DNA of 54,785 bases, the filler included, from a bacterium (GTDB lineage Bacteria; JALSQH01): the NCBI GenBank assembly GCA_026985515.1. It is 3 parts of 3 records of this genome, joined end to end, with 100 filler letters (N's around TTAATTAATTAA, not from the genome) between each part and the next. Parts side by side here need not be neighbours in the genome. Positions count along the whole stretch, not along the records: positions 1 to 15,456 come from JALSQH010000262.1; 2 more parts are not named here. One strand, 5' to 3'. Position numbers and translations under genes: made by a program. Under the pieces are notes generated by a model that had not been told where the DNA came from, did no database searches, and was given only the letters and a program-made list of their open reading frames with translations. Of this stretch, positions 8,373 to 43,188 are shown in pieces (position 1 is the stretch's first letter; each line of letters opens with the position of its first letter).

Positions 8373-9080
8373 TCACAACAGGATGGAAAGAGCAAGGGAA
8401 ACAATTGGATTCAAAATAGATGAGATAAGTCCGGGAACAAGAAAGAGAATTAAAAGAAGAATCATCATACCATACGGTTCAAGTCTTGCGTAAAATATTC
8501 CAACAGATGGTGGAGCAAGTCCCACTACTATTCTGCTCCCATCAAGTGGTGGAAATGGAATCAGGTTAAAAAAGGCAAGAAAAAGATTAATAATCACCCC
8601 GAAAAAGGCCATCTGGGTAAGAGGAAGAAGTATCCTGATAAGAACAGGAGCATCTGAAAAATTTATGTACCCGGGCATCCTCAGGTAGTAACCAAGTGAA
8701 GGTTCAATGAGAAAAAAAGCTCTTATTAGAAGTGCATAGACAACCGCCTGAATTATATTGGCAGCAGGACCAGCTGCGGCAACATATACCATATCTCTCT
8801 TGGGATTTCTGAGAGCCAGAAAATTTATCGGAACCGGTCTGGCCCATCCAAAAAAGATTCTTCCCACTGTCAGGAGTTCAAGTAGTGGTAATATAATTGT
8901 GCCCACAGGATCAATATGATGAAGCGGATTCAATGTGAGCCTGCCCTTTAATTTTGCAGTGTAATCCCCCAATTTGTAAGCCATCCATCCGTGTGCTATT
9001 TCGTGCAACACCACCGCAAATAATAGAGGAATACCATACAAAAAGAGTTTAACAATAAATGCGCCAATTCCGTGTCCCAT
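8373..9080 (-). CDS. Site-2 protease family (M50) membrane metalloprotease
   Basis: HEIAHG, GRLTLNPL.HID, GWARPVP, AAAGP..N, FNLIPFPPLDGSR. Confidence 0.95.
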   Translation of the reverse strand: MGHGIGAFIVKLFLYGIPLLFAVVLHEIAHGWMAYKLGDYTAKLKGRLTLNPLHHIDPVGTIILPLLELLTVGRIFFGWARPVPINFLALRNPKRDMVYVAAAGPAANIIQAVVYALLIRAFFLIEPSLGYYLRMPGYINFSDAPVLIRILLPLTQMAFFGVIINLFLAFFNLIPFPPLDGSRIVVGLAPPSVGIFYARLEPYGMMILLLILFLVPGLISSILNPIVSLALSILL

Positions 9081-9087
9081 AGATATT

Positions 9088-9115
9088 AGAATACCATTAT
9101 TTCAGATTCAGTCAA
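9088..9115 (-). promoter_or_regulatory. Sigma70-type promoter for the S2P-trpS-scpAB-rluB operon (likely leaderless)
   Basis: Minus strand TTGACT-N16-TATTCT with extended -10 TG. Seven nt separate the -10 from ATG 9080; no SD. Confidence 0.6.
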
Positions 9116-9184
9116 TGAGAGGAACCCCGTGACGATCGCCACGGGGCCAGGTGGGGCAAGAAGGCGGGAAATTTTAAGGCGGGC
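9116..9184 (-). ncRNA. Candidate sigma54-dependent small RNA (~70 nt, C-rich)
   Basis: Starts at the predicted +1 of the sigma54-like promoter at 9195-9210. Contains CCCGCCTT x2 and CCCCACCT, and ends in an 11-bp GC hairpin. No credible ORF. Confidence 0.45.
9123..9148 (-). terminator. GC-rich hairpin, probable intrinsic terminator
   Basis: GGCCCCGTGGC-GATC-GTCACGGGGTT. Three G-U pairs form only on the minus strand. Weak pyrimidine tail. Confidence 0.6.
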
Positions 9185-9194
9185 ACAAACTATA

Positions 9195-9210
9195 TACAAT
9201 ACTCATGCCA
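9195..9210 (-). promoter_or_regulatory. Sigma54 (-24/-12)-like promoter TGGCATGAGTATTGTA
   Basis: Correct TGGCAY-N5-TTG spacing. The -12 reads TTGTA instead of TTGCA. Confidence 0.55.
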
Positions 9211-9260
9211 TCGTTTTCTCATCCTGTAATGAAATTTTCTGAAAAAATTTCAGCAAAAAG

Positions 9261-9275
9261 TGACAAAAAATGTCA
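9261..9275. promoter_or_regulatory. Palindrome TGACA-N5-TGTCA, candidate enhancer-binding-protein site
   Basis: Perfect 5-bp inverted repeat centred ~84 bp upstream of the predicted sigma54 +1. Confidence 0.45.
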
Positions 9276-9277
9276 AA

Positions 9278-12200
9278 TTATCTTATGGGAGGGGCAAGTC
9301 CTTCAAATTTCACAAAATAGATTTTGTGCCCAGTAACGGAATATTCTCCAGATCCTATTATTGAATAGTAGAAAAAGTTTCCAGGATGCTGCGGATCTGG
9401 GGAAACGAAAGTATCTATAACAGTAGGTGAAAAACCTTTGTTATCCGCAACTATTTCTGGATGCTCGTAATTGGAAATGTCAAAAACAAACAACCCAATG
9501 GAACCAAGGGAAACAAAGAGATACTGAGCAGTTTTATCAATTGACTTGATAACAGCCCCCTGGGTCTGCTCCTGCTGATTCAGATAATCGTTTATATCAA
9601 TTTTGCTCAAAAGATAGGGTTGAGATGGATCGGAAATATTGTAAAGAAAAATTGTTTTTGAAGTGGCAGTTATCAACAGATCCCTCTGAATATAGTTGTC
9701 AACCACAGAACTATTCGCCGCTTCCCCTGACAGAAATGTCACAACTGGTGGAGCGCTGAGGGTGTAGGAAAGAATACTTCCTGAGATAGTGATCAAATTA
9801 CTGTTGTCCCTGGCCACATAGATGGGGGCATCCTGCCTCATACAGTAGGAATACCCACCAACTATGGAAGGATTCATCTCTGCTCCCAGTCTCTGATAGT
9901 AAAGTCGAGGGGAAGTGTTGCTGTCATCACAGAAGAATACAAAGTTTGAATTATCACCGGAAAGTTTTTTAATTTTTTTATCAGGTCCCCACTGATTCAA
10001 AAATACAGGTTTACGGAAGTTTCTGAAGTCGTATTCGTAAACTCCATAATTGTTTGAAGCAATGTAAAGATGGGAGCGGGAACGATCAAAATAGAGTCCG
10101 GTTGCTTCACCATCTATGTCAATATGGGAAACAACTTCCGGGTGAGATATGTCAGTTATATCAATCAGGTCAACACCACCATAACCCTTTGCTGCGAAAA
10201 CATAATTCTTACCAAAACTTTTAAATGACTGGAAAGCGAAGGGAATACCACCAATATTTATCTCTCTGCGAATATTATAACTACTGTCAATTACCGAGAG
10301 TCCTCTGTAATAATTTGATGCATACTTCATATCTGAGAAATCCTGCATATCAGTAAAATCATTTGCGGGACACTTTCCATTAGTGGAGTAACAATCTGAA
10401 ATGGGACCCGCATCTGTCCAGTTGTCAGTTTCCGCTACGAAAATTCTATTATCTGAATGCCAGTTTATATCAGGTGTGGCTGGTTGATAGGGATCAGACA
10501 CATTCAGAAATCTCAACTCATTTCCAGAGAATGTATATGCAATGGGCCATGCAACCCTTATGGGATCAATAAATAATCTATCCACAGAACCGAGATAATC
10601 TTTGTACTCTTTCACTCTACAGGAAGAAGGATCAGAAACAGGTTTGTTCAGACAATTACCATTTAAAAATAAAGGCCTGTCAGGTTCAGTGACATCTATT
10701 ATAAAAAGTGGAACACTATGGTGATCAGGAGGGTAGTTCTCACTGGCATTTATTCCAACGAAAAGGAGATCAGCCTTTTTATATGAGGCAGTATAATATG
10801 CCCATGGATCCCTCAGATAGAATAATGGATCAACCGCAACTCTCTTTTCATCAATGAGATGCCAGTACTCTCTCGGCACCTCAATACCATTTCTGTAAAG
10901 GATAAAATCCTCTGGAGAAGTAACATGGGCAACATACTGGATTCTGGCAATGTAGGAGTGATATTTATCACTGTAATTGAAATAGAGGGGTTCATCTTCA
11001 ACCTGTCCCCCTTTCAGCAGGAAAAGAGAATCTGCAATCCAGTAACTCATAAAAGGAGGTCCTCTGTAAGAATCATAGGGTCCCACAGTTATGAACCTTG
11101 GCTGGAAACAGCTGTAACCAGCTGGACAAATGGATGAATCTTTGACCGCGTAACATCTGGATCCCTGAGGGCATTTCGTCAGAATATCTTTCATACTCAC
11201 AATAACAAGGCCATATTTGTCCGCTGCAATAAAAAAATGTTTTTTAAAGTAAAGGGAATCAAGTATCCTGGAACAGAAGATATCCTGTACATTAAATGGA
11301 CATACTTTCACCTGTTTTACCACATCAAACAATCCTGACGATTTTTCAACACAATCCGGGATGCTGAAATTGGAAATATTCAGTGCTCCAACAACATTTC
11401 TCGCTGAGAACCAGGAAGCATAAACAAAACTCCTGCCGTTATAAAATCCGATGCCTGAGTGACCATGATAATTAAATGATCCCTGTGCATTTGTAAAGAG
11501 ATTGGTATCCTTTACCACAGGTGAAGTTATCCCGTTTTTGAAACTAACAGAAAGAGTTGTGTAAGGTTCTCCAGATTCACCACCTCCACCAGAGACAATA
11601 AGACATCTGTCTCTGTAAAACATTGATACTGCCCCACCTCTCTCTGTATAACTCAAAGGCACCCGGAATCTCTTGAGAAAATATATCGAGCCGGGATCCT
11701 CAGGATTATTCATATAGAAGACATCGATGTTACCATATGATTCACCTAAAAAAAGGAGGTAGTACTTTCCAAGACCGATTCCCTGGAATTCCGGCGGCAG
11801 AATGTTTCTATCATAAAAGGGGCCGGTTACCAGTACCGAATAGGCAAAGGAATCAAGGTCCATGTATCTGGAAACCATCACCGGTGATACATAGACTCTT
11901 ACCTTTGTCCTTCCAGTTACAGATGCGCCACTATCATCATATATTTTCACAATGATTGAAAACTCTCCCGGGCTTGTATAGGCCCAGGAAAGGTTGAGAT
12001 TGGATGGACGATTCTTGACATAATCCACCACCCCGTCGCCATTCATGTCATACTCTACTTTCTCAATTTCTCCATCGGGGTCATGAGCCGATAGATACAG
12101 CATGACGCTCAGCTTTCCATTTGAAAGTGAACCTTCCCGTGGAGAAACATAAAAGGAGTCAATCACCGGTGGCTTATTGCTGGTGACCTTTATAACTTTT

Positions 12201-12586
12201 TCCGGTGGAGTAGCAACAGTGCCCGTCTTCTTATCCTTGATCAGGGCCCTTAAGTTGTACTCTCCAGGCAACTTATATGTGTATGAAACATTCAAACATT
12301 CGCTTCCAGTGTAATCCCACTTCCCATCACCATTAAAATCGACATAATAGGCAAGATCTGTGAAACTTCTGTATTCCTCACCGGCAATCTTTCCAATGAG
12401 AGTAACCTTTACAGTGAGGGGTGCCTTACCCTCCAGGGGATCAACTGTAAAGGCAGTGATAAGAATCACTTCGTTTGAAACTGGCGGTGTTATACGTCCA
12501 TCATTATCTTCCCCTTTCTTTTTACAACCCGATGATATTGAAATTAAAGTTAGAAAAATAGCAAAAAGAAATGTTACTCTTTTCAT
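9278..12586 (-). CDS. Large lipoprotein with two PKD domains and LVIVD-repeat beta-propeller
   Basis: Lipobox ISSG-C. Two PKD repeats (DFNGDGKWDY..YTYKLPGEY; DMNGDGVVDY..YTSPGEF). LVIVD repeats (YVFAAKGYGGVDLIDITD..HP; YLFVSLGSIGLFVFDISN..HP). Cys-rich inserts. Confidence 0.85.
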   Translation of the reverse strand: MKRVTFLFAIFLTLISISSGCKKKGEDNDGRITPPVSNEVILITAFTVDPLEGKAPLTVKVTLIGKIAGEEYRSFTDLAYYVDFNGDGKWDYTGSECLNVSYTYKLPGEYNLRALIKDKKTGTVATPPEKVIKVTSNKPPVIDSFYVSPREGSLSNGKLSVMLYLSAHDPDGEIEKVEYDMNGDGVVDYVKNRPSNLNLSWAYTSPGEFSIIVKIYDDSGASVTGRTKVRVYVSPVMVSRYMDLDSFAYSVLVTGPFYDRNILPPEFQGIGLGKYYLLFLGESYGNIDVFYMNNPEDPGSIYFLKRFRVPLSYTERGGAVSMFYRDRCLIVSGGGGESGEPYTTLSVSFKNGITSPVVKDTNLFTNAQGSFNYHGHSGIGFYNGRSFVYASWFSARNVVGALNISNFSIPDCVEKSSGLFDVVKQVKVCPFNVQDIFCSRILDSLYFKKHFFIAADKYGLVIVSMKDILTKCPQGSRCYAVKDSSICPAGYSCFQPRFITVGPYDSYRGPPFMSYWIADSLFLLKGGQVEDEPLYFNYSDKYHSYIARIQYVAHVTSPEDFILYRNGIEVPREYWHLIDEKRVAVDPLFYLRDPWAYYTASYKKADLLFVGINASENYPPDHHSVPLFIIDVTEPDRPLFLNGNCLNKPVSDPSSCRVKEYKDYLGSVDRLFIDPIRVAWPIAYTFSGNELRFLNVSDPYQPATPDINWHSDNRIFVAETDNWTDAGPISDCYSTNGKCPANDFTDMQDFSDMKYASNYYRGLSVIDSSYNIRREINIGGIPFAFQSFKSFGKNYVFAAKGYGGVDLIDITDISHPEVVSHIDIDGEATGLYFDRSRSHLYIASNNYGVYEYDFRNFRKPVFLNQWGPDKKIKKLSGDNSNFVFFCDDSNTSPRLYYQRLGAEMNPSIVGGYSYCMRQDAPIYVARDNSNLITISGSILSYTLSAPPVVTFLSGEAANSSVVDNYIQRDLLITATSKTIFLYNISDPSQPYLLSKIDINDYLNQQEQTQGAVIKSIDKTAQYLFVSLGSIGLFVFDISNYEHPEIVADNKGFSPTVIDTFVSPDPQHPGNFFYYSIIGSGEYSVTGHKIYFVKFEGLAPPIR

Positions 12587-12599
12587 CTCATCTGATTAT

Positions 12600-12615
12600 T
12601 ACAAAATGCGTGCCA
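12600..12615 (-). promoter_or_regulatory. Sigma54-like promoter TGGCACGCATTTTGTA for the PKD/LVIVD lipoprotein
   Basis: Consensus TGGCACG -24 box with correct spacing; -12 is TTGTA. Predicted +1 ~12589, 3 nt before ATG 12586. Confidence 0.6.
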
Positions 12616-12633: not shown

Positions 12634-15456
12634 TCAATTTTTTATCTTTCTAAACAGTCCATAACCGGTAAGCCACAGGAAAGTAAGAAGAATTATTACT
12701 ATGTAACCTGCAGGATTTCCAGAGGTACAACCAAACCCCTCAGACCTGATCTCAAAAACCAGACCTTTCTCTGAAACATTTCCTGCCTCGTCACGGGCTC
12801 TGACAATTAATCTGTGAGTTCCGCTTTTTAAACCATCAAGAGGAATGATCCTTGAAGTTGTCCAGGGTGAAAAATCTCCATTATCTATCTTCCATGAAAT
12901 CGTTACATCAGACATATCTTCGGTACCAACAACGATAGAGTCACCATTTGAAAATACAGTTTCAGGATTAAGGAATGAAATTTCAGGTGGAGTTCTGTCC
13001 ACAATAAATTCAACCTTTGCAGGTGTGTAGTCCATCCATGTATACCCGGCATAGGATTGAATGGCTGCAACCTCAAGAGTGTGTTTTCCGTCAAGAAGTC
13101 CCTTTAAATTTACCGAAACCTCTTTTGTTTTGACGGGTGGATGCCATAATCCTCCATCCAGTCTGTATGTGTAAAGAAGATTATCTGGATCAACGAGTTT
13201 ACTTGAACCATTGTATTTGAATATCAATTCATCTTTGTTGGTCACAAATTTACTCACATATGAAGCTGGCAGAAATACCTCATCCCCCTGGGCACCGGGT
13301 ACCTCAATCGTTGTATCTGGATGCAAATCAGCCGGCGACGCACCGGAAAGAGAAAGATTACCCAGGAACTGAAAAATGTTAACATTACCGAGCAGAGTTA
13401 TATACAGACTGAACCACTTATTATCTGGTCCATCTGGACCAGAATAGTGAAGGTCAAAAGTTAATCCCGCCAGTCTGAATCTTGTTTCAACATAAAACTG
13501 AACATATGAGGACATGAGAACAGGAATCAAATTGGAAAATTGATCTTTCAACAGTGAAGTATTAACATCTATTTCAGATGATACCACTTCTATGGGGGTT
13601 ACTCCATAGCTGATAAGAGAGGGACTGTTTATCTCTCCGTAAAGCATTATATAGCCCGGGACATAATCTGGCAAATAATCGTAATTGGGATCACACTCAG
13701 GCTGTCCATAGTAGGGATCAAGGGGACTGCAACCTTTGTGAAATTCAAGATCAAATCCCGCTGTAAGGTTCCACCTCAACGTCATTATTCGTTTCTTGAC
13801 GTTATATTTATCAGTAAACCAGAACTCAAAATCAAGTGCGGGGAAATAAAAGGCAACATCAAATTTCCCGGTCATCCCCTGACCGGGCCCACTGGAATTG
13901 TTGTAGGTTCCAACTCCAACTGCAGCAGTGGGAGTAGCTCTCGGCACCATTTTGATTTCAACATATGAATTATCTTTTGCAAGTCTTCCCAGGACCGGTA
14001 TAAGATTCTTCCATACATCTACTTTTAGAAAATCTTTAAAAGGTGTTTCCTTACCATTTTCATCGTATGGAGTCATCTCAAACTCCACTATTCCTGCTGC
14101 AAAGGCTGCATAGAGGACCTGCTTGAGAAAGTTCTCATGGATTGAAAGAGCCATATCGTAATTGAATACATTTGATGAACCATCATCCTTAATCCCATTA
14201 TGATTGGCATCATACATTACTGTCCTGAAGCCTCCCCAGGTGTTTACTCCATACTTTATGAGAGTCAGACTACCAAGAGATGGAGGAGTCACATTGGGTG
14301 GAGGAACATCTGATTTGTCTATAAGCGGTGGACCAAAATCTGTGGGACCGGAATCATCATCAAACTGCTGGTCCTCGTCAACTCCATCGTTGTGATTGTA
14401 AAGTGCACAAATTCCAAAGAAATCTGTTGGTTCAGGATTATTTAAGTCAATATCCCTGGAGCAATCCGCATTAAACAGAATTGGTTCAGCTGCTGCGTTC
14501 AAACGAATATCCATTGCACAATTTGTGTATGTGGAAGGCTTCCACAATCCATTGGAGTCGTAAGTTCCATTTACTTCATGATACTGCGTACTTGAACTGT
14601 ATGAAGAATCCACCACATCAGGATTCTGACCGTAGAGACCAACATCTACCAGTCCCTTTCCTATTTTCCATGGATCACCCAGGAGATTATTCATATCAAT
14701 GGGTAGTGCACCAGCAAGTGCGCTTTTAAGGCTGTTATTCAGGATATTTTGAAATTTACTTTCTAATATAGGTTTTAACAAATTTAACAAATCATCAGTC
14801 AATGAACCCGGATCAATATTCAAATCAAATTTTGCATCTTTTAAATTACTTAATATCACATCAGTAACATTAATATCAACATCCAGAGCATCAGGATTAT
14901 AAATTCCATCATTTGAATTATCAAAGAAAAAGAATTTCATTGAGGCAACTATATCAAAATAATACCACTCTACAAAACCTCCTCCTCTACCGATTGTATC
15001 ACCCGCGTCTATGCCTAACTCCGCATAAACATCTGGAATACTGATCCTGAATACTATTGAATCTGCTGGAAAATCGCCACAATTGCCAGGCCCAGTACAA
15101 AACCCAAATTTTGTTATATCTGCACCATCCCAGACATTATGACAGGGAGAAGGTTTTGGATAATTATAACAACTTCTTCCGTTAGATTGCCTCGGACCAG
15201 GAAAAGTATAACCGCTGTGATAGGGAGGAGTGTGATGAAAATCCCTCAAAGTTTCATATGATCCATCAGCTTTTAATACAGTAGGACTATTAGTCCATGT
15301 AAAATATAAATGGGTCTCGTCCACATATACTGCCTGGTCATCACCAGGAAAGCAATAGTAGCCATCCGTATTATCTCCTCCTCCATGTTCATAATGAGAA
15401 GAACAATAACAACAGGAATAACCATAACAGCTTCCGCTACAATGACCCCTACAACT
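12634..15456 (-). CDS. Large surface protein: Cys-rich N-part, BPI/LBP(TULIP)-like core, two Ig-like domains, MYXO-CTERM/GC_trans_RRR-like anchor; 5'-truncated by contig end
   Basis: Frame is open to the contig edge (SCRGHCSGSCYGYSCCYC... precedes the track start at 15324). Ig-like YRLDGG..DGKHTLEVAA and DRTPPEI..GTHRLIVRARDEAGN. C-terminus GFGC-linker-TM-RKIK. Confidence 0.8.
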   Translation of the reverse strand, partial: SCRGHCSGSCYGYSCCYCSSHYEHGGGDNTDGYYCFPGDDQAVYVDETHLYFTWTNSPTVLKADGSYETLRDFHHTPPYHSGYTFPGPRQSNGRSCYNYPKPSPCHNVWDGADITKFGFCTGPGNCGDFPADSIVFRISIPDVYAELGIDAGDTIGRGGGFVEWYYFDIVASMKFFFFDNSNDGIYNPDALDVDINVTDVILSNLKDAKFDLNIDPGSLTDDLLNLLKPILESKFQNILNNSLKSALAGALPIDMNNLLGDPWKIGKGLVDVGLYGQNPDVVDSSYSSSTQYHEVNGTYDSNGLWKPSTYTNCAMDIRLNAAAEPILFNADCSRDIDLNNPEPTDFFGICALYNHNDGVDEDQQFDDDSGPTDFGPPLIDKSDVPPPNVTPPSLGSLTLIKYGVNTWGGFRTVMYDANHNGIKDDGSSNVFNYDMALSIHENFLKQVLYAAFAAGIVEFEMTPYDENGKETPFKDFLKVDVWKNLIPVLGRLAKDNSYVEIKMVPRATPTAAVGVGTYNNSSGPGQGMTGKFDVAFYFPALDFEFWFTDKYNVKKRIMTLRWNLTAGFDLEFHKGCSPLDPYYGQPECDPNYDYLPDYVPGYIMLYGEINSPSLISYGVTPIEVVSSEIDVNTSLLKDQFSNLIPVLMSSYVQFYVETRFRLAGLTFDLHYSGPDGPDNKWFSLYITLLGNVNIFQFLGNLSLSGASPADLHPDTTIEVPGAQGDEVFLPASYVSKFVTNKDELIFKYNGSSKLVDPDNLLYTYRLDGGLWHPPVKTKEVSVNLKGLLDGKHTLEVAAIQSYAGYTWMDYTPAKVEFIVDRTPPEISFLNPETVFSNGDSIVVGTEDMSDVTISWKIDNGDFSPWTTSRIIPLDGLKSGTHRLIVRARDEAGNVSEKGLVFEIRSEGFGCTSGNPAGYIVIILLTFLWLTGYGLFRKIKN

Positions 15457-15556
15457 NNNNNNNNNNNNNNNNNNNNNNNNNNNNNNNNNNNNNNNNNNNN
15501 TTAATTAATTAANNNNNNNNNNNNNNNNNNNNNNNNNNNNNNNNNNNNNNNNNNNN
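15457..15556. other. Artificial contig linker (N44-TTAATTAATTAA-N44)
   Basis: A six-frame stop spacer inside an N run; an identical copy sits at 38104-38203. Confidence 0.97.
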
Positions 15557-15726: not shown

Positions 15727-16671
15727 ATGAAACGAAGATTTATTTTTGTACTGCTTTTAGCTGTAGTTTTTACATTTACTTATGGTAGTTGCAGTAAAAA
15801 CGAGGCCAGGGGTGGGGAGGAAACTGGTGGTAAAACAGAAAGTGTGAAATCTGGAAATCTTGCAGAATCAGACATTCCCAGAATAAAAAAAATTGCAGAA
15901 GATTTTGTTTTAAAAATGGCAAGGGGGAATAAAAACGCCCAGATAAGAGTTCTGAAAGTTACGGAATCGGTTATTCCTGGAGTTGCAAAAGTCAGAGTGG
16001 AATGGAAACAGGGAGGATATGGAAAGAGATTCAATCTCTATGTTACGAATGATGGAAAATATATTTTTATGGGTCCCATTGTTCCGGCAAATGGTGACCT
16101 CTCTGGAATTCAGTCGGAAGAAGTTGATTTTGTAGATGAATCAATGATAAACACAAAAGGTGCACCCTCTATAGGTCCCAAAGATGCACCCATCAGAATT
16201 GTTGAGTTCGCTGATTTTCAGTGTCCCTACTGCGGAATGATGTATAACACCATGAAGCAGGTTCTTGAGCAATATAAAGGGAAAGTAAGATTTACCTTCA
16301 AACACTTCCCGCTTTCTTTTCACAAATGGGCGGAACCTGCAGCTCTTGCTGCTCAGTGCGCATACAACCAGAAACCCGATGCATTCTGGGACTTCTACAA
16401 CTACTTCTACCAGAATCAGAGAGAATTCACTCCACAGAACATCGAGGAAAAATCAATAGAAGAGGCAAAGAAAATTGGACTCAATGTTAAGAAGTTCAAA
16501 AAATGTCTCAAAGATCCTTCCACAAAAGATCAGATAAAAAAATCTTTTCAGGATGGTCTGAAATTGCAGGTCAGATCAACACCAACCCTCTTTATCAATG
16601 GCAGATACATTCCCGGTGCCCTTCCCTTCAATCAGATCAAATCCATAATCGACAGCGAGCTTCAAAAATAA
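15727..16671 (+). CDS. DsbA/Com1-like thiol:disulfide oxidoreductase lipoprotein with DsbC-like N-terminal domain
   Basis: Lipobox-like TYGS-C; EFADFQCPYC; KHFPL.FH; STPT cis-Pro loop; N-domain ESVIPG..V..LYVTNDGKYIF.G. Confidence 0.9.
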   Translation: MKRRFIFVLLLAVVFTFTYGSCSKNEARGGEETGGKTESVKSGNLAESDIPRIKKIAEDFVLKMARGNKNAQIRVLKVTESVIPGVAKVRVEWKQGGYGKRFNLYVTNDGKYIFMGPIVPANGDLSGIQSEEVDFVDESMINTKGAPSIGPKDAPIRIVEFADFQCPYCGMMYNTMKQVLEQYKGKVRFTFKHFPLSFHKWAEPAALAAQCAYNQKPDAFWDFYNYFYQNQREFTPQNIEEKSIEEAKKIGLNVKKFKKCLKDPSTKDQIKKSFQDGLKLQVRSTPTLFINGRYIPGALPFNQIKSIIDSELQK

Positions 16672-16700
16672 AAAAAGGCGGGATTTCCCCCGCCTTTTTT
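16671..16700. terminator. Bidirectional intrinsic terminator
   Basis: AAAAAAGGCGGG-ATTTCC-CCCGCCTTTTTT between convergent genes. Confidence 0.9.
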
Positions 16701-20841: not shown

Positions 20842-20872
20842 AAAAACGGAGAAGGATAAATCCTTCTCCGTT
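20842..20872 (-). terminator. Intrinsic terminator of the ior-paaK-ACT operon
   Basis: 12-bp inverted repeat AACGGAGAAGGA-TAAA-TCCTTCTCCGTT with a T tract on the minus strand. Confidence 0.85.
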
Positions 20873-21302
20873 ACATATTCAGAAGTTCCTGGGAGGAAAT
20901 AAGAGTTACATTTGCCTTTTCAAGGACCTTTATTGCTGATTCCGGATCTTCAAATCTGAAAATTATAATTGCATCATCTTTATGTTTTGCAAGAAAGGCA
21001 TACATGTACTCAATGTTGATCCCGGCGTCCCTCAGGGGGACAAGAATTGAGTGAAGTCCACCCGGCTTATCAGGAACAACAACTGCCACAACATTATTTG
21101 TAGACACTGTTATCATCTTCTCCTTCAGCACTTTCTCAGCCTTATCTGGATCATCAACTATCAGTCTCAGGATTCCAAAGTCGCTTGTATCTGCAAGGGA
21201 AAGTGCCCTGATATTCACATTATTCTCTGCAAGGATTCCTGTTATTTCTTCAAGCCTCCCCGATCTATTCTCAAGGAATATTGACAACTGTTTTACAAGC
21301 AT
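20871..21302 (-). CDS. Tandem ACT-domain protein
   Basis: KQLSIFLENRSGRL, ALSLADTSDFGILRLIV, PDKPGGL, INIEYMYAF; the usual neighbour of paaK. Confidence 0.93.
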   Translation of the reverse strand: MLVKQLSIFLENRSGRLEEITGILAENNVNIRALSLADTSDFGILRLIVDDPDKAEKVLKEKMITVSTNNVVAVVVPDKPGGLHSILVPLRDAGINIEYMYAFLAKHKDDAIIIFRFEDPESAIKVLEKANVTLISSQELLNM

Positions 21303-27798: not shown

Positions 27799-28717
27799 CT
27801 CCTATCCCCCTTTTTCTGTCTCTCCATGCCCAGAAGGTTGCCACACTCAATCCTGCAATAATGTGCCATACCCCCCACCACGCTGCTACGAGTGCCATCC
27901 CTCCAAGACCATGAAAGAAAGTGAAGATCAATACAAGACCAAGTGCGGAATTCTGAATCCCTACTTCAATTGACACAGCCCTTGAGTCCCTGTCGTCCAG
28001 ACCGGCAATTTTTGCTGCAAGATAACCGGTTATGAGAGCAGTGGCATTATGGATAAAAACAACAATTGCAACATAACCAACATACTTCAGAAAATATTGC
28101 CAGTTAGCCTTTATGGCAATAACAACGAAAAGGATAAACACGATTATTGAACCAATTTTGAAGGGCCTCTTTGCCTTTGCGGCAAAATCGGGATACCTTC
28201 TTCCAACATAAATATCGAGGGTGAGAGGGATACCAAGGATCAATACTATGGTCATGAACATCTGCAGAGGATCAACACTTACTGCATGGTAGATGGGTGC
28301 TGTCCTGTGATTGAGGGTTCCCCAGAAAAAGAGATTGAATGGGGTCATCACAACGGCAAATGCTGTGGATATGGCTGTCATTGTAATGGATAGAGATACG
28401 TTCCCCCGGGCAAGATATGTGATAAAGTTTGAAATATTTCCGCCTGGACAGGCAGCTACAAGAATCATTCCAAGAGCGATGCTGGGGCGAGGATTGATTA
28501 TGAGGGTAAGCAGATAAGTAAAGGCAGGAAGAAGAATGAACTGACCTGTCAGGCCAATTAACGGAGCCTTTGGCTTTCTGAAAACATCAACAAAGTCTGA
28601 AACTTTTATGTCAAGGGCTATCCCGAACATGATTATTCCCAGTATGACATTCAGCAAAACAAGACTTTGAGGACTGAAATTCAGCCTGAGCTGATCGACA
28701 CTGGAAGAGATATCCAT
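27791..28717 (-). CDS. Bile acid:sodium symporter (BASS) family transporter
   Basis: MFGIAL, QFILLP, CPGGNISN, GNVSLS, IEVGIQNS, WWGVWH. Confidence 0.93.
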   Translation of the reverse strand: MDISSSVDQLRLNFSPQSLVLLNVILGIIMFGIALDIKVSDFVDVFRKPKAPLIGLTGQFILLPAFTYLLTLIINPRPSIALGMILVAACPGGNISNFITYLARGNVSLSITMTAISTAFAVVMTPFNLFFWGTLNHRTAPIYHAVSVDPLQMFMTIVLILGIPLTLDIYVGRRYPDFAAKAKRPFKIGSIIVFILFVVIAIKANWQYFLKYVGYVAIVVFIHNATALITGYLAAKIAGLDDRDSRAVSIEVGIQNSALGLVLIFTFFHGLGGMALVAAWWGVWHIIAGLSVATFWAWRDRKRGIGVE

Positions 28718-30440
28718 TAACCCTGTGGCTCCTCATGCATCATTTTGAAAGCCATCAATCCGGGTGGCCACTTGTGTTCTACTGGATCAACATCCACATG
28801 AATAACTGCACACCTGCCACTTTCAACGGCGTCTTTCAGAGCCTTTCTGAAATCATCCACATTATCCACCCTGACCCCAAAGGCTCCCATGCTTTCAGCC
28901 AGTTTATCCCACTTTATTTCTGAAAAATCTGTGTTTATCAGCTTTTCCTCAGGCAGTTTTCTCTTCATCATGGTGGTATTTTGATCAAGCATCATCTCCT
29001 GTGTCAGCTTGGCCATACCCCACTGTCTATCAGATACAACTATGAAAATCGGCTTAAGACCATTTCTCACAGCAGTTTCTATCTCCTGAGGATGGAAACC
29101 CATTGCTCCATCACCAATTATGCAAAAAACTCTTCTATCTGGAGCAGCTATTGAAGCACCCAGGGTCTGACCAACTCCCGCACCAAGCATTCCGAACTTA
29201 AAAGTCGTTATGAGAGTATTGGGCTCATTATGGCGGTATCACCACCATCAACAACACAAATCGCATCATCACCAAAGAACTCCCTCGCTACCTTCGGTAT
29301 AAAAGCTGTAATCATGGGCTTCTTACTTCTGTTTTCTTCACTCAATTTTTCATCATACAGTTTTCTTCCCTGCTCTTTCATTTTGACAAGCTCATCTATC
29401 CTTGCCTCTCTGGAATTTCTGTCAATCTGGTCCTTTCTCTTTTCCACTTCCTCAATCAGCATTTCAAGAAAGAGCTTTATGTCTCCAAGAATATTGAGCT
29501 CAGCTGGCCTGTTTAATCCCAGGATAGAATCGTCAACATCCACTCTTATCATTTTCTGAGTGGAGGGATCTCCCCACATTGGAACCTTGCCCCAGAAATC
29601 TGTTTCACCCAGTCTTGAACCCAGCACAAGCACAAGATCAGATTCTGTCTTCACCTTCAAAACCACATCCACATAAGGTAGTGGAACAGCATATCTGCTG
29701 TCATCAGGGATTGAACCTCTGGCTCACCAGCTCGTTGTAACTGGTGACGAGAGTAACTCTGCAAGCTTTTTCAATTCCATAAATGCCCTCGCATGAACCA
29801 CTCCCGTTCCAGCATGAATAAGAGGCTTTTCAGAATTTACCAGCATATCTGCTGCTTCCCTTACAAGATCAGGAGGCGGGTAGATCCTGTGAATTCTTCT
29901 GTACTGATGGGGTTCCCAGAGGGGTGGTTCTTCAACCTCGGCATTCATAAAATTTTCAGGAATATCAATATGAACCACCCCGGGTCTCCCCTTCCACACT
30001 TCCCTCAGCGCCTTCATGACAATTTCAGGAATTCGCTCCAGAGAATTTACCGAGGCACTCCACTTTACAACGTTCTTAATCGTGTCAACCTGGTTGAAAT
30101 ACTGATATGCACCACCTATGTCTGGATCTGTAATCTGCGGTCTTCTTTTGCTTGTGATGAGAAGAACCCTGTTCCCCTCTGCATTTTCAACAGTTATACC
30201 TGGTAGAATATTTGCAACACCTGGACCATTAGATGCCATACATACACCAATTTTTCCCGTAACCCTGTAATAGGCACCAGCCATGTGGGCTGCCATTGAT
30301 TCATGCCTCGGGGAAATCAGCCTGATACCATACTTCTTAAGAGTTGAGTAAAATCCGAAGTAGGTTCCATCAATTATGCCAAAGACATACTCCACACCCT
30401 CCCTGGCAAGAATTTTTGAAATTATTTCTCCACCATACAT
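28717..30440 (-). pseudogene. TPP-dependent enzyme (acetolactate synthase/2-hydroxyacyl-CoA lyase superfamily), disrupted
   Basis: Three track ORFs form one gene: RHE..AAHMA, GPGVAN, GRPGVVHIDIP, middle domain, GDGAMGF. In-frame TGA at 29724-29726 (TTSW*ARG) and a frameshift near 29229 (DGGDTAI / NEPNTLITTFKFGMLGAG). Confidence 0.9.
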
Positions 30441-31243: not shown

Positions 31244-31346
31244 ATGGCATCCTCCCCAGATTTTTCTTTGCATTTTATCATTAAATTTTAATTTTTGCAA
31301 CACATAAAATCTGGAACTATGCGATAAAATTAGCTATAATTTCCCT

Positions 31347-33077
31347 GTGAAGCTGAAAAGTTCTGTTCTGTTGCTTACAATTTTAACAATAATTATAAAC
31401 AGCTGTGGAGAGACTTCTGAAAAAATAATCTTTCCCCAGGGGGTAGCATCCGGTGACCCCACTCCTGAAAGCATCATTATCTGGACAAGGGCGGTTCCAT
31501 CAGAAGAATCCAGTGTGATGGTAAATTACCAGATTGCAAGGGATCCTGATTTCAAAGAAATTGTTAAATCAGGCGTTGTCACAACCTCAATTGAAAGGGA
31601 TTACACCATACATGTTAAAATTTCAGGGCTATCTCCCTTCACCCATTACTATTACAGATTCATATCAGGTAAATACACTTCTCCCACGGGAAGAACCCTC
31701 ACTGCACCAGCTCCGGATTCTGATGTACAGGTAAAATTCGCCGTTGCCTATGGACAGTCGTATGTTGGAAGATACTTCAAAGCCTATTCCCTTATGCTCA
31801 CCAGGGACAGCGACATTGACTTTGTACTTTTCCTGGGAGATTATGTTTATGAGGCTACATATGTAAAGGATGCAATTGTTCCAACACCCGATAGATTTCT
31901 CAAATTTCCAGACGGAGGAATGATTATATCCTCCGGTTACTATGGAGCAACCAGAGTGGCATGGACCCTTGAGGACTACAGAACTCTGTACAGAGTATGG
32001 AGAAGTGACCCAGATCTGCAGGAGATTCACAGAAACTTCCCATTTATCGTTATGTGGGATGACCATGAATTTGCAAATGATTGCTGGAGAGACCATGCGG
32101 AAAATTTCAATGGAAGAATAGGGGACGAGAATGAAACCGAAAGGAGGGAAGCTGCCACAAGAGCCTTTTATGAATATATGCCTGTGGATGTGGAGTATCA
32201 TCCAGAAAAAGGTTATCCCGATGATATAACCCTGTACAGGAGCTTCAGATATGGGAAAAATGTTGAAATCTTCCTGACCGACCAGAGATACTACAGAGAC
32301 CCACCAGCAATACCACCCGGACCGGTAAATCTTGAAACTGGTAAAATAATGGCAAACAATATTCTGGGAGCGAGAATTCTTGTCCCCAAAGAAGCTTATG
32401 ATTCCATCGAGAGTAAAGCCAGACCCACCATGCTGGGGCACAGGCAACTCAACTGGTTAATTTCAGGCATAAAAAACTCCACTGCAAAATGGAAGGTGAT
32501 TGGAAATCCCACCATGTTATCACAATTCCTCATAGATCTCAGAAATTATGATCTGCCTCCCAACCTGAGAAAATTATTCTACTTTAAACTTGACCAGTGG
32601 GATGGATACAGAAGTGAAAGAAGGTATCTTCTGAAAGAGCTTGAAGGAACAGAAAATGTGGTTTTTCTAACCGGAGACCTCCATGCCTCAATAGCATCCC
32701 CTGTTTATGTTGATTACGATCTACCTGTTACACCTGTTGCTGTGGAATATATGGGACCAAGTATATCTTCAGTCTCTCTCCAGGAACAGTTAAAGGCGGC
32801 TCTTGATTCCTCACCTCTCCTTCAAATTGTTGGAAAAATTTCCAGACTAAATCAGATTATATCAAGTAGTGAAGAAGTTGTTCTAAGAAGCAACCCATAC
32901 TTTAAATTTGTAGATCTGTCTGATTATGGATACGCTGTCGTCAGTTTCAGTGCTGAAAAACTCACGGTCGAGTTTGTGTTATTTAGAGATGTCTTTTCAG
33001 GTAAGATCCCGGAAAATTACAGAGTGGTGAGGTTTACCACCCCTGCAGGGAGTCACGAAATTTTACCCCAACGGTAA
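31347..33077 (+). CDS. phoD: Alkaline phosphatase D (PhoD) family lipoprotein
   Basis: FPQGVASGDP..IIWTR, LGDYVYE, WDDHE, DQWDGY, LTGDLH. Lipobox-like IINS-C. Confidence 0.9.
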   Translation: MKLKSSVLLLTILTIIINSCGETSEKIIFPQGVASGDPTPESIIIWTRAVPSEESSVMVNYQIARDPDFKEIVKSGVVTTSIERDYTIHVKISGLSPFTHYYYRFISGKYTSPTGRTLTAPAPDSDVQVKFAVAYGQSYVGRYFKAYSLMLTRDSDIDFVLFLGDYVYEATYVKDAIVPTPDRFLKFPDGGMIISSGYYGATRVAWTLEDYRTLYRVWRSDPDLQEIHRNFPFIVMWDDHEFANDCWRDHAENFNGRIGDENETERREAATRAFYEYMPVDVEYHPEKGYPDDITLYRSFRYGKNVEIFLTDQRYYRDPPAIPPGPVNLETGKIMANNILGARILVPKEAYDSIESKARPTMLGHRQLNWLISGIKNSTAKWKVIGNPTMLSQFLIDLRNYDLPPNLRKLFYFKLDQWDGYRSERRYLLKELEGTENVVFLTGDLHASIASPVYVDYDLPVTPVAVEYMGPSISSVSLQEQLKAALDSSPLLQIVGKISRLNQIISSSEEVVLRSNPYFKFVDLSDYGYAVVSFSAEKLTVEFVLFRDVFSGKIPENYRVVRFTTPAGSHEILPQR

Positions 33078-38103: not shown

Positions 38104-38203
38104 NNNNNNNNNNNNNNNNNNNNNNNNNNNNNNNNNNNNNNNNNNNNTTAATTAATTAANNNNNNNNNNNNNNNNNNNNNNNNNNNNNNNNNNNNNNNNN
38201 NNN
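38104..38203. other. Artificial contig linker (N44-TTAATTAATTAA-N44)
   Basis: Identical to 15457-15556. Confidence 0.97.
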
Positions 38204-41200
38204 CCCTCCTTCGATACCTGCTGTGATATATCAGAATCAGATCACAAATCAGGTTGATTATGTTTTGAAGAGGAGCGGAGGAAGTGTTGATAGCAATTTC
38301 CTTTTGTGGGAATGTCAGGGTGGAGACAGGGCAGATTTTGTACCATGTGGAGGAAGTGAGTCCACCACAGATTTTTATTACAGGTTGCTTACGGGAACTC
38401 CCCAGAGAATAAACATGCTACGATTAAGAGCAGTGGATAAAGCTGGAAACACAGGAGATTCTGCCATTGTTCAGATAATTTATGATTCAACTCCGCCCAC
38501 AAGACCGCTTTTGGGTCATAGAGGAAGTAGAATCTTTGTTAATACTGATAGTTACCTTGTTGAAATAACCACACCTTCCAGTGATGTGAATTTTGATCTT
38601 TACCAGTACTGTGTTGAGGATGGAGATACTTCTTACTGCCCTGATTCAGATTTTGTCAATTCTTCTCAGTCTCTTGAGATACCCGTTCCTCTTGAACCTG
38701 ATAAGGTAGTGAGTGTGTTCATAAGGGGAAAGGATAAGGCGGGTAATGTGTCTCAATATGATAGAGTTGTCATAGAGCAGGATTCAGATCCACCATCGGC
38801 CCCACAGCTTCTGTTAAACGAGGTGTATGTAAATGCGATTTCTATACCTGTTTTCCTCTCAAGAGGGTCTGTTGATCCTTCTTTGGCTGATCCGGGAGAG
38901 GATAATTTTGATCACTATGAAGTTTATGGAGGATTAAACTGCAAAACAGGGGACGTTTATAACAACGATTCAATAGGAAGGAATGAAGGTCTCTGGGTAT
39001 GCCTTTTCAGAGAGGGAGGGATCCCCCTGCTGAAAAATGGAGAAGTGGATGTGGAGATATATGCTGTGGATAAAGCGGGAAACAGGAGTTATCCTGCTTT
39101 GTTGAGAATATTTGCCAGAAATTCGGAACCTGTTTTTACTGATTCAAATTTATCGGATCTTATTACAATTGCTTCTCACGGAATTTTTTACAGGAAATAC
39201 AGTGACAGCAAGGTCTTTTTTTACAATTTTGATGATGAGAAAATTTATTCAGATGATATTTACAGCAGGTTCGCAAATTGCTCTGAAGGTACTGATTACC
39301 TGTATGTTGAGAGTCTGAAATCAATTACAAACTATGATGGTAATGAAATTTTGCTGGGGTCTGGAGGAGGTCTGTTGCCAAATTTTCTTCTTGCAGACAA
39401 GTTTGAAATGAGTGATAATAGCTGGAGTTCCTATTCATATCTCTTCCCTACAGAGGAAAGGATTGCAACACTTGCTACCAATCAGGGTGGGGTTGCCTGG
39501 GTGACTACTGGAAAAGGTATAATTATGGCGCCATCGGTAACTTCTTCTACTTTCTATAATGTTGATAAGTGGAGATGCTATTTCAATTATTATCGTGTCA
39601 CATCTGAAACACAAATATATGGTTTTTATCAGCTGGTAAATCTCAGCAGGGAATCCACAGATGGTCTTTACGGAATGTATGGGAATGTTTATGGTGATAG
39701 TGCCTATGTGAGCCTTATACCTCTCAGCTGTCTGGGGACCGGTTACGGGGAAAATGGTTTTATGGAGAAAACATGGGTCATGGTTCCTGTTGATGCGAGA
39801 GTTCAGTTTGGTACGGTGTTTGTTGCTGGTATCTGTACTGATGGAAATAATAGATTATCCTGGAAAACTCTATCCAGAGATGATAACTTTCCTGGAGTTG
39901 TGACAATGCCAGATATGGAATTGATCGGTTCTTCTGAATCATATAATCCTGCTATTACTGAGGACAATCATGAAATAGCGCATATTTCCGTTGATGATAG
40001 CAGGGCATACAGTCAGATTCTTCTCCTTCAGAAACATAAGGTTGCAGATTACATAAACCTTTACTACGCTCCTGAATCTATCAAGGATTTTACGCAATCA
40101 GAAAGATCTTATAATACCTATAAGACTCCTTTTACACCTGGCGAGGTAAGGGAGATCCTTGAGATTCCTGAAGTAATCAATGGTTACGAAAGATTATTTT
40201 TCGACAGCGACTCCTACACCGGAACCGACAGGTTGAGAGGTATTGAAATTTCATTTAACAGTAGCTATAAGATTTCTGCTATACGTGCTTATCTGAAGTG
40301 CAGCGGCAATACTACAATACGGGGAGCCATCTATAAGGAGACATCTTCAGATACTTATTCCCGTATAGCATCCACCTCCACGGTAAATTCATTTACAAGT
40401 GATTTTTTTGAGTATGTTCTTCGTTTTGACGAGCCTGTACATGTTGATAGTGATGCTCCTTATCTCATTGTGTTTCAGTGGCGGGGTGATAGTTGCGAAT
40501 ATTATGCAGGGGGCAACAATCCTATTGAAAGGCCATATGGAGTTGTTGAGAGACGGGTAATGGTTAACAATGTTTCTGAAGTTCCGTTGACAATAAGTAG
40601 CAGCAGTATTCAAACTGGATATTTTTATGAAATAGGCTTTGACATCAGTGAGGGAGGCGACATAATCAAAGATCCCGGCCGCATTCTGGATCTTTCTGGA
40701 AGATATCTTTTCCTTGCAACTTCCTTTGATTCATCAAATCCACTGACTTATTCAACCCTGAGAGTTATTGATCTGGGGGAAAATTTCCTTTATGACTCTT
40801 CCGATAGGCAGTGCATAATCCAGAGCGGAGACGGGATTGAGTTCGGTATCCTTGATGCTACCGGAAAAAGTTTTACATATGTTTATACCACCAATGATGG
40901 AACCATCAGACATGTCTTTTATGATTTTGGCAGTGATGGAATTCCCTGTACAGGCGATGATGAGAAGATTACCACAGATATTTCCCGATGGGTTGATTCG
41001 GAAAGGATATATCCCTCTCTTTCAATGATAGCTTCAATGGAACCCGATGTCGTCTCTCTGAGGACCGGGATTTACTGGTATGACCTGGCAAAGGTGAAGG
41101 ATTACGGTGATAACTGGTATGGAAATATTCAGCCTGAAAAAAAGAGTGAAAACGGATTTGCCGGGGATTCTTATCTTCTCGGGGATATACCTTTCGTACT

Positions 41201-42260
41201 CCAGGAAAATTATGGGAACGAAAATTATACTATTTACAGAGAAAATCCAGAAATTTTCTATCCATTTGGATCAACTTCTGTAGATAATGGTTTTAAGATA
41301 TCGAGCAACGGCGATTATGTGGTGGTAACAGGTTTTGATTATTATAATAACCTTATTCAGGGCAGCACGCTATATGTTTTCGATAGAATCACAGGAAAAT
41401 ATATTGGAGGAATAAAAAGCGAAGACTCCTTTTTTGTCTCTGTTCCTGCTGGTAATGAGGTTTTTATTAATGCAAATTTCACTAATTTTACTCAAGGACA
41501 ACAAAAGTATCTCATGTATGATATTCACACAGGCAATCTTTTTGAACCTTCAAACATTTCTGGTGGGTACAAACTAAAGTGGGGCGATTACGAATTTTTA
41601 ATCTCTAATTTCAATGTACCATCAGGTACAAGGTTTCTTTTCAGCAGTTATGAGAATGACAGGTATGTTGTTCACATTTATGACCTGGGGGATGATGGAA
41701 TACATGTTGATGAAGGTTCTGGCGATGATAGAGAAGACTGGATCGATCCATTTCCTTTTGAAATGAGTGTTACAACTCCTGTTGGATTTTATCTTACAGA
41801 TACTTACTTCGCTGTTGAGGTAACAGAAGCGGACTTTGTACATGATGTTTTATATGGAAAATTGGGAAGTACCCAGATTAAAAGTATACACGATATTGAT
41901 GTTTTCCTGGGTATTTCTGGTGAAGACATGTATTACATCGCTGATAGCTATTTGCACAGGAGAAATCTATCCTCTGATGATGATAGGATAATGAGAGTTG
42001 CTTATATACATGACTTCTTTCCATACAATGTGGGCAGGAAAGGTGACTGGATATTTTTTGCATCTGACGACAATATCTTTGGAATAACTGCTATTAATCT
42101 TTTTTCTAATGAGGAAATTCCCATATTTGCAGGTAACAACCTTCCACCTTTTACGGGAAGTGTTTATCCTGGAAAATTTATTGAACCTGATGGTAATGGT
42201 TTTATGTTCAGTCTACAGAATGGCAAAAGGATTCTCATGAGGTATGAGATTGGCAGATAG
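38204..42260 (+). CDS. Very large extracellular protein with Ig-like (DKAGN) repeats and beta-rich C-terminal region; 5'-truncated by contig start
   Basis: Frame is open from 38205 (PPSIPA). Three DxxPP..DKAGN Ig-like units, a DUF4082-like segment and repeated D(L/F)GxDG...DD loops. Confidence 0.8.
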
Positions 42261-42288
42261 TTGACGCGAGAGCTCCATATGGTATTAT
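42261..42288 (+). promoter_or_regulatory. Sigma70 promoter TTGACG-N16-TATTAT (extended -10), likely leaderless
   Basis: Six nt separate the -10 from ATG 42295; no SD. Confidence 0.6.
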
Positions 42289-42294
42289 TAAAGT

Positions 42295-43188
42295 ATGAAA
42301 AATCCAGTGATCGTAAATGGGAATGCGAAAGGGATACGAAAGAGATATGCCAGTATATTAAAGGAGCTGAAAGAAGATTTTGATTTTGAATTCATACTCA
42401 CATCTTCCCTTGATGAACTTAACAGTGTTAGCAGGCAACTGAGTGAGCAAAAACCTGAACTTATCGGAATCTGGGGTGGAGATGGGACACTTTTTCACAC
42501 CCTTAATGCCATTTTAAAATATTTTTCCGAACCACCCATCTTTTTTTATCTTCCAGGAGGAACCTTCAATACAGTTGGAAGAAATCTTGGATATTCAGGC
42601 TCACCTCTCAGGATATTGAAACATCTTGGAGGTAATAAATTTGATGTGCCCACTCTCAGGATTAAAACGAGGGATAAAGAATACACCGGTTTTATTTTCA
42701 CCAGCGGTCTTCCATACAAATCAATGGAACAGTACTACTGCTGTGGAGAGCCCAATCTTTTCACAGGAATCAAAGTTGCCCTGTGGCCCCTGGTGTCATT
42801 TCTCTTTCCCTTTCTTGTGAAGAATAATAATTATTTTGATGCACCTGTTATGAAAGTTGAGATAGACGGTAAATTCCTCTGGGAGGGTCCCACATTAACT
42901 GTAACGGTTTCAACTGTACCCAACCTTGGGCTCTGGATTGCTCCTTTTTCTGAAGAGGGAGAAGGTTTTTATACCCTTGCCAGCTCTGTACCGGTGAAAG
43001 TTATTATGAAAGATTTCTTCAAGGTACTTCGCGGACGTTTCAGTCACCCTCTACACTATAACAGAAGGAGCAAAGAGGTAAAAATTACTCTTTCTTACGG
43101 ATTTCTTATCGATGGGGAGATGTTCCCCCTGAAGGATATGGAAGAAATAATCATAGTTGAGGGCCCCGTATTAAAATTTGCACGATAA
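42295..43188 (+). CDS. Diacylglycerol/sphingosine kinase family protein
   Basis: GGDGT, LPGGTFN, IDGE motifs. Confidence 0.88.
   Translation: MKNPVIVNGNAKGIRKRYASILKELKEDFDFEFILTSSLDELNSVSRQLSEQKPELIGIWGGDGTLFHTLNAILKYFSEPPIFFYLPGGTFNTVGRNLGYSGSPLRILKHLGGNKFDVPTLRIKTRDKEYTGFIFTSGLPYKSMEQYYCCGEPNLFTGIKVALWPLVSFLFPFLVKNNNYFDAPVMKVEIDGKFLWEGPTLTVTVSTVPNLGLWIAPFSEEGEGFYTLASSVPVKVIMKDFFKVLRGRFSHPLHYNRRSKEVKITLSYGFLIDGEMFPLKDMEEIIIVEGPVLKFAR

Follow-up and report, generated by a model that had tools for sequence, protein, structure and literature searches.

A sigma54-type promoter motif and a candidate short C-rich RNA between a PKD-protein gene and an M50 protease gene in an uncultured hydrothermal-vent bacterium

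We analyzed a 54,785-nucleotide stretch of DNA (here called the window) from an uncultured hydrothermal-vent bacterium belonging to a phylum-level lineage. Intergenic sequence makes up 4.4% of the window. Linkers of the form N44-TTAATTAATTAA-N44 at positions 15457 to 15556 and 38104 to 38203 mark joins between contigs, so the gene neighborhood across these joins is not real. The spacer studied here separates a gene for a PKD-domain protein from a gene of the M50 family (Table 1). The M50 gene is the first in an operon and is followed by trpS, scpA, scpB, and a pseudouridine synthase gene. Directly upstream of the PKD gene lies an open reading frame (ORF) of 896 aa without a Pfam match (12634 to 15324, minus strand); its own promoter is out of sight because the ORF abuts a contig linker. 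An ORF of 1,345 aa at 38223 to 42260 on the plus strand is likewise without a Pfam match. At 28717 to 30440 on the minus strand, a thiamine-diphosphate enzyme is spread over three successive ORFs, which carry N plus the start of M, the rest of M, and the C domain, respectively; this is either a broken gene or the product of assembly errors.

Table 1. Features at the locus, in positions of the window
Feature	Position	Strand	Remarks
PKD-domain protein gene, 1102 aa, secreted	9278..12586	-	5' neighbor of the spacer; stop TAA at 9280-9278
Spacer between the PKD-protein gene and the M50 gene	9277-9081	-	197 nt
Palindrome TGACA-N5-TGTCA, candidate enhancer-binding protein site	9261..9275	.	about 77-91 nt upstream of the predicted start
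AT-rich inverted repeat TTTTCTGAAA/TTTCAGCAAA and A/T tracts	9235..9257	.	arms 9235-9244/9248-9257, 10 nt, 90% complementary
Sigma54-type motif TGGCATGAGTATTGTA, TGGCAT-N5-TTGTA	9195..9210	-	GG 9209-9208, GT 9197-9196; pattern scan and conservation in G001
Predicted whole RNA, about 62-69 nt	9116..9184	-	inferred from its parts; both ends predicted
Predicted 5' part of the RNA, C-rich GCCCGCCTTAAAATTTCCCGCCTTCTTGCCCCACCT	9149..9184	-	36 nt, 17 C and 4 G
Hairpin of 11 bp with 3 G-U pairs and GAUC loop	9123..9148	-	stem 9148-9138/9133-9123, -19.5 kcal/mol
Sigma70-type promoter of the M50 operon, TTGACT-16-TGgTATTCT	9088..9115	-	upstream TG; 7 nt to ATG 9080
M50 (site-2 protease family) gene, 235 aa	8373..9080	-	3' neighbor of the spacer; ATG at 9080

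For comparison, we searched with the M50 protein and kept 80 loci. The closest relative was found at locus L001 of genome G001, where the M50 protein is 70% and the PKD protein 53% identical to those of the window and the gene order is the same. All other loci were at most 51% identical, and no M50 relative above 51% identity was found among 40 genomes related to G001. The reference collection searched contains no other genome of the G001 phylum. A metagenome scan with the C terminus of the PKD protein gave 172 pattern matches, which came down to a single relative, identical to the window. Among DNA contigs from sequencing runs, one near-identical copy had an unchanged spacer, and a second, about 80% alike, stopped at 9154.

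Sigma54 promoters carry GG at -24 and (T)GC at -12, with exactly 10 bases between GG and GC. The initial annotation had proposed such an element at 9210 to 9195. The GG at -24 is present and its spacing to the -12 element is exact (10 bases), so that these parts of the claim stand; the -12 element, however, reads TGT instead of the canonical TGC. The consensus is described as GG/TGC (PMC3844500). The pattern TGGCAYN5TTGYW matched the window three times against 0.28 matches expected, and none of 100 shuffles reached three. Two of the three matches are intergenic and oriented in the same direction as the neighboring genes, namely, the one at 9210 to 9195 and a second motif, TGGCACGCATTTTGTA, at 12615 to 12600 on the minus strand. 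Only 13 nt separate the latter from the PKD-gene ATG (12586), so that this mRNA would be nearly leaderless. In front of the PKD orthologue of G001 we found TGGCATGTTTTTTGCT (L001, 424 to 439), followed by 27 nt containing an AGGAGG site and a GTG start codon.

The motif in the spacer is conserved. Between the PKD and M50 genes of G001 lies TGGCACAAAAATTGTA (TGGCAC-N5-TTGTA), in which all 11 specified bases are kept within a spacer that is otherwise unalignable; conservation at the orthologous position rests on this one comparator. BLAST of the spacer against G001 returned only AT-rich chance matches (E values of at least 0.07). The initial annotation had named a genome lacking rpoN as an argument against the promoter. 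G001 encodes RpoN, with a full Sigma54_DBD match of 151 bits in a 544-aa frame, and has 11 Sigma54_activat matches to enhancer-binding proteins, 6 of them above 50 bits. Within the window, rpoN was not found among the 45 ORFs scanned, and no window ORF gave a Sigma54_activat match.

Across G001, the sigma54-type motif matched 14 times, compared to 2 matches for a reversed control. Half of the 14 matches, the M50 site included, are intergenic, co-oriented with the next gene, and placed directly before it. At the six sites other than M50, the start codon follows 11 to 45 nt after the motif, the shortest distance being that at L134, which is 11 nt before an ATG. The -12 element of these seven gene-proximal motifs (loci L121 to L134) is TTGT in five cases and TTGC in two. 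Since five of the seven carry TTGT, T at -12 appears to be normal for this lineage in spite of the GG/TGC consensus, which suggests that its RpoN tolerates or prefers T at the canonical C position. Judged from the sequence comparisons, the sigma54-type promoter is a well-supported part of the locus: the motif is above chance and is kept in a genome that has both rpoN and enhancer-binding proteins, and TGGCATGAGTATTGTA is probably a real sigma54 promoter.

Sites for enhancer-binding proteins are expected about 70 to 150 bp upstream of a sigma54 promoter. The palindrome at the upstream end of the spacer, initially put forward as such a site, lies at a suitable distance and has no second exact copy in the window; if one mismatch is tolerated, the count rises to 3, versus 2.5 expected. 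It is, however, absent both from the orthologous intergenic region of G001 and from the whole G001 assembly, and this part of the annotation gained no support. A search for a motif shared by four sigma54-type promoter regions, two from the window and two from G001, recovered only AT-rich 9-mers. The AT-rich inverted repeat is present as annotated, but it occupies 9235 to 9257 and not 9230 to 9252. Together with the A/T tracts, it may bend the DNA. The interval between the palindrome position and the promoter is also AT-rich in G001, but it cannot be aligned.

Downstream of the motif, the layout differs from that of the other sites. The next start codon is 114 nt away, compared to 11 to 45 nt at the PKD gene and the six G001 sites, and the intervening sequence holds a strong hairpin and a complete second promoter. 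The latter supports the earlier proposal that the next gene has a sigma70-like promoter of its own: the hexamers and spacings are identical in G001, where they read ATTGACTG-16-TATTCTAAT-4-ATG. No Shine-Dalgarno sequence precedes the M50 ATG, in contrast to many other genes of the window, where AGGAGG-type sites are present. The M50 mRNA is thus probably leaderless and made from the proximal promoter. Because its ATG is without a Shine-Dalgarno sequence and sits a fixed 7 nt from the -10 element, a transcript reading through from upstream would translate M50 poorly. Leaderless-looking layouts were also seen on the plus strand at 31329 to 31349 (TATAAT-6-GTG, with the GTG at 31347) and at 42261 to 42297 (TTGACG-16-TGgTATTAT-6-ATG, with the ATG at 42295). 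Leaderless or near-leaderless mRNAs seem to be in use in this lineage, those from sigma54-type promoters included.

These observations bear on the possibility that the M50-trpS-scpA-scpB operon has in this motif a second, distal promoter dependent on sigma54, with the C-rich stretch and the hairpin forming a 5' leader of about 104 nt, perhaps an attenuator. The motif does point toward the operon, both genomes have conserved it upstream of the M50 gene, read-through is plausible at a hairpin that has no U-tract, and paired sigma54 and sigma70 promoters are described for glmY and glmZ (PMC3844500; PMC3045617). On G001 contig C183, a gap of 10 N falls exactly between the sigma54-type motif and the M50 promoter, over the body of the predicted RNA; were this gap short in reality, the motif would lie about 56 nt from the ATG, near the 11 to 45 nt of the other sites. 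However, 69 kb of G001 loci (L001, L082, L115, L126, and L130 among them) contain three N-runs, each of exactly 10 N, which indicates a scaffold placeholder that is silent on the true distance. Expression of the operon from the motif would also have to contend with a very stable hairpin between promoter and gene, and the M50 start codon, in its fixed position behind a conserved -10 element and without a Shine-Dalgarno sequence, fits leaderless proximal expression better. Moreover, a sigma54-type motif was found within 400 nt upstream of none of 107 distant M50 loci, so this housekeeping operon does not generally come with a promoter of this type. We regard a distal operon promoter as unlikely.

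The hairpin is strand specific. It is the second most stable 30-nt window on either strand of the whole window, and at this site the minus strand folds 4.7 kcal/mol better than the best 30-nt plus-strand fold (-19.5 versus -14.8 kcal/mol); the hairpin does not form in the plus-strand fold. This agrees with the preference for the minus strand claimed initially, with the small correction that the hairpin ends at 9123. There is no U-tract; two closing G-U pairs are followed by the tail CCUCUCAUU, and a terminator scan made no call at 9148 to 9123 because the site has no T-run. As a whole, the 82-nt stretch folds as expected for its composition (z of -0.74, with 45 of 200 shuffles folding as well). 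The window contains two other strong intergenic hairpins, at 16671 to 16700 and 20844 to 20873, and both sit at the 3' ends of genes. The first is a canonical two-way terminator with hairpin and T-run, AAAAAAGGCGGG-loop-CCCGCCTTTTTT, between convergent genes; the second is another strong two-way hairpin. By analogy with these positions, the hairpin in the spacer, which lies 129 nt 3' of the PKD-gene stop codon, is most simply the terminator of the PKD gene. It is likely a terminator common to the PKD-gene mRNA and the predicted short RNA, and termination there may be leaky given that it has no U-tract.

Between the motif and the hairpin lies the C-rich stretch, for which we infer a start near G9184 from the promoter spacing. 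Its 36 nt are unpaired in both the minimum-energy and the centroid folds, and a comparable C-richness is reached by 189 of 108,960 windows of 36 nt. It contains CCCGCCUU twice (9183 to 9176 and 9168 to 9161) and then GCCCCACCU; the two former sites form an exact direct repeat of CCCGCCTT, which occurs five times in the window against 0.57 expected. Both arms of the terminator at 16671 to 16700 carry this same 8-mer.

Rho loading sites are C-rich, G-poor, and unstructured, and the 17 C and 4 G in this unpaired stretch would fit one. The hairpin, perhaps with such a site, could then be the terminator of the PKD mRNA and nothing else, with the motif being silent or holding sigma54 holoenzyme in a closed complex that shields the housekeeping operon from transcription arriving from upstream. 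The positions of all three strong intergenic hairpins of the window, downstream of gene ends, are consistent with this account, as is our failure to find an enhancer site, the palindrome being absent in G001 and no motif being common to the promoter regions. Repression and transcriptional interference have been raised as roles of sigma54 binding sites (PMC3844500). The conservation of every specified motif base fits this account less well, since 11 conserved bases in an otherwise unalignable spacer argue for selection on the motif itself. A used promoter is also a simpler account of a 129-nt gap between stop codon and terminator that holds a well-placed promoter. Rho_RNA_bind was not found in G001, which counts only weakly because this metagenome-assembled genome is incomplete. 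Overall, we consider a pure terminator quite unlikely.

No protein appears to lie behind the promoter, as had been proposed: the minus-strand frames here are limited to one of 24 aa starting with GTG and one of 37 aa starting with TTG, neither of which has a ribosome-binding site, and the TTG sits within the sigma54-type motif. The 24-codon frame (9186 to 9112, MPALKFPAFLPHLAPWRSSRGSSH) could in principle be a tiny near-leaderless gene. It begins no more than 2 nt from the predicted start of transcription, near-leaderless sigma54-type cases exist with 13 nt (PKD gene) or 11 nt (L134 of G001) from motif to ATG, and a TATAAT-6-GTG layout is found at 31347. Its GTG, however, follows the -12 base by 10 nt and precedes the expected start; in the two near-leaderless sigma54-type genes, the ATG comes 13 to 15 nt after that base. 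The frame also runs through the hairpin, chance alone would be expected to leave 24 codons open in C-rich sequence, and there is no homologue for comparison. The small peptide, which we set aside on account of the position of the GTG, is hardly credible.

Nor is it at all probable that the repeat acts as DNA, with AAGGCGGG-N7-AAGGCGGG (plus strand, 9161 to 9183) serving a regulator of the M50 promoter as its operator. The direct repeat is exact, its 8-bp copies are spaced at 15 bp, it lies about 80 to 100 bp upstream of the M50 start, and the 8-mer is over-represented in the window (five copies versus the 0.57 expected), all of which would suit such a role. Against this, the two arms of the terminator at 16671 to 16700 account for two of the three remaining copies, which shows that the 8-mer is not promoter specific; at a spacing of 15 bp, the copies face opposite sides of the DNA helix; and G001 has no paired CCCGCC repeat.

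We also considered what the C-rich stretch might do as RNA. The initial annotation had suggested that its C-rich motifs pair with G-rich ribosome-binding sites. With the 43 translation-start regions in the window, the best pairing was -28.1 kcal/mol, and 133 of 300 shuffled C-rich sequences did equally well or better, so that the window gives this suggestion no backing. The repeated motif is CCCGCC, and the anti-Shine-Dalgarno sequence, CCUCC, has U where CCCGCC has G. A paired CCCGCC pattern gave no matches in G001. An Rfam 15 scan of positions 8800 to 9600 found no covariance-model match at or above the gathering score; the best match was to a eukaryotic snoRNA model (22.9 bits versus a gathering score of 61), and all other matches were at chance level (E values of at least 4.6). 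ARAGORN detected no tRNA or tmRNA in the whole window.

The explanation we favor, tentatively and at somewhat less than even chances, is that the motif drives an RNA of about 62 to 69 nt that shares the terminator of the upstream gene. According to this model, a sigma54-dependent promoter in the 3' untranslated region of the PKD-protein gene would start transcription near G9184 on the minus strand. Because the promoter is placed before the terminator of the PKD gene, the transcript would be short and would share that 3' end, finishing at the GC-rich hairpin 9148 to 9123, which would also end the PKD-gene mRNA. The product would be a small noncoding RNA consisting of a 36-nt single-stranded C-rich 5' part and a 3' stem-loop, and it would be made only when an enhancer-binding protein is active. 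The C-rich stretch might bind a protein or base-pair with target mRNAs at their G-rich ribosome-binding regions. As far as sequence allows one to say, a complete transcription unit with a C-rich stretch and a hairpin is plausible.

A wider proposal would be that sigma54, recognizing TGT at -12, drives in this lineage both near-leaderless mRNAs for large secreted proteins of the PKD type and, from a promoter within the 3' region of one of these genes, an RNA of about 65 nt, rich in C, that pairs with Shine-Dalgarno-like sequences or binds a protein. We hold this combination to be rather doubtful. If it were true, the expression of cell surface proteins would be coupled to posttranscriptional control elsewhere. 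In proteobacteria, GlmY/GlmZ, Qrr, and other small RNAs that depend on sigma54 are key switches, and we know of no such RNA described from deep-branching uncultured lineages. A confirmed case would extend this design to such a lineage and would provide a handle on the signal of its sigma54 regulon, which is apparently centered on large secreted proteins. Even so, it would add one more case to a known kind and would not establish a new principle.

Among known systems, the Qrr1 to Qrr5 RNAs of Vibrio are described as short RNAs that depend on LuxO and sigma54, strictly require an active enhancer-binding protein of the NtrC type for their transcription, and act by base pairing. Unlike them, the candidate has no Rfam homology, was not found in multiple copies (the paired CCCGCC pattern has 0 matches in G001), and has no recognized LuxO-type site. 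The activator of GlmY/GlmZ is GlrR/QseF. These sigma54-dependent small RNAs of the Enterobacteriaceae are described with overlapping sigma70 promoters (PMC3844500; PMC3045617). The candidate resembles them in combining a sigma54 promoter, a short noncoding RNA ending in a stem-loop, here a predicted one, and a sigma70 promoter nearby. It differs in that this sigma70 promoter is that of the next gene and is located downstream, whereas in GlmY/GlmZ it overlaps the sigma54 promoter. Furthermore, the candidate has GT at -12, comes from an unrelated uncultured lineage, has no activator site that we could find, and matches no Rfam family in sequence or structure.

In RsaE/RoxS, 6C, IsrR, and LhrC, unpaired C-rich motifs are described as pairing with G-rich ribosome-binding regions. 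The candidate is similar in having three C-rich motifs in a stretch predicted to be single stranded, and C-rich pairing as in RsaE/RoxS, 6C, and IsrR is a fair analogy for what it might do. These RNAs mostly show their C-rich motifs in loops and are not known to be sigma54 dependent. In contrast to them, the candidate motif CCCGCC has G for the U of the anti-Shine-Dalgarno sequence, and its predicted pairing is at the level of shuffles.

The 3' end invites comparison with two further systems. Compared to an intrinsic terminator, such as the canonical one at 16671 to 16700, the hairpin has no U-tract, continues into the tail CCUCUCAUU, and received no call in the consensus scan; like an intrinsic terminator, it has a GC-rich 11-bp stem with a 4-nt loop, lies downstream of a gene, and is strand specific. 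Small RNAs of the MicL/DapZ type arise from 3' untranslated regions, with a promoter of their own and the terminator shared with the mRNA. Their promoters are usually inside the coding sequence and use sigma70-family factors, unlike the candidate promoter, which is sigma54-type and sits beyond the stop codon, in the 129-nt spacer. The arrangement is nevertheless alike: the promoter is near the end of the upstream gene and before its terminator, and the mRNA and the predicted small RNA would share their 3' end.
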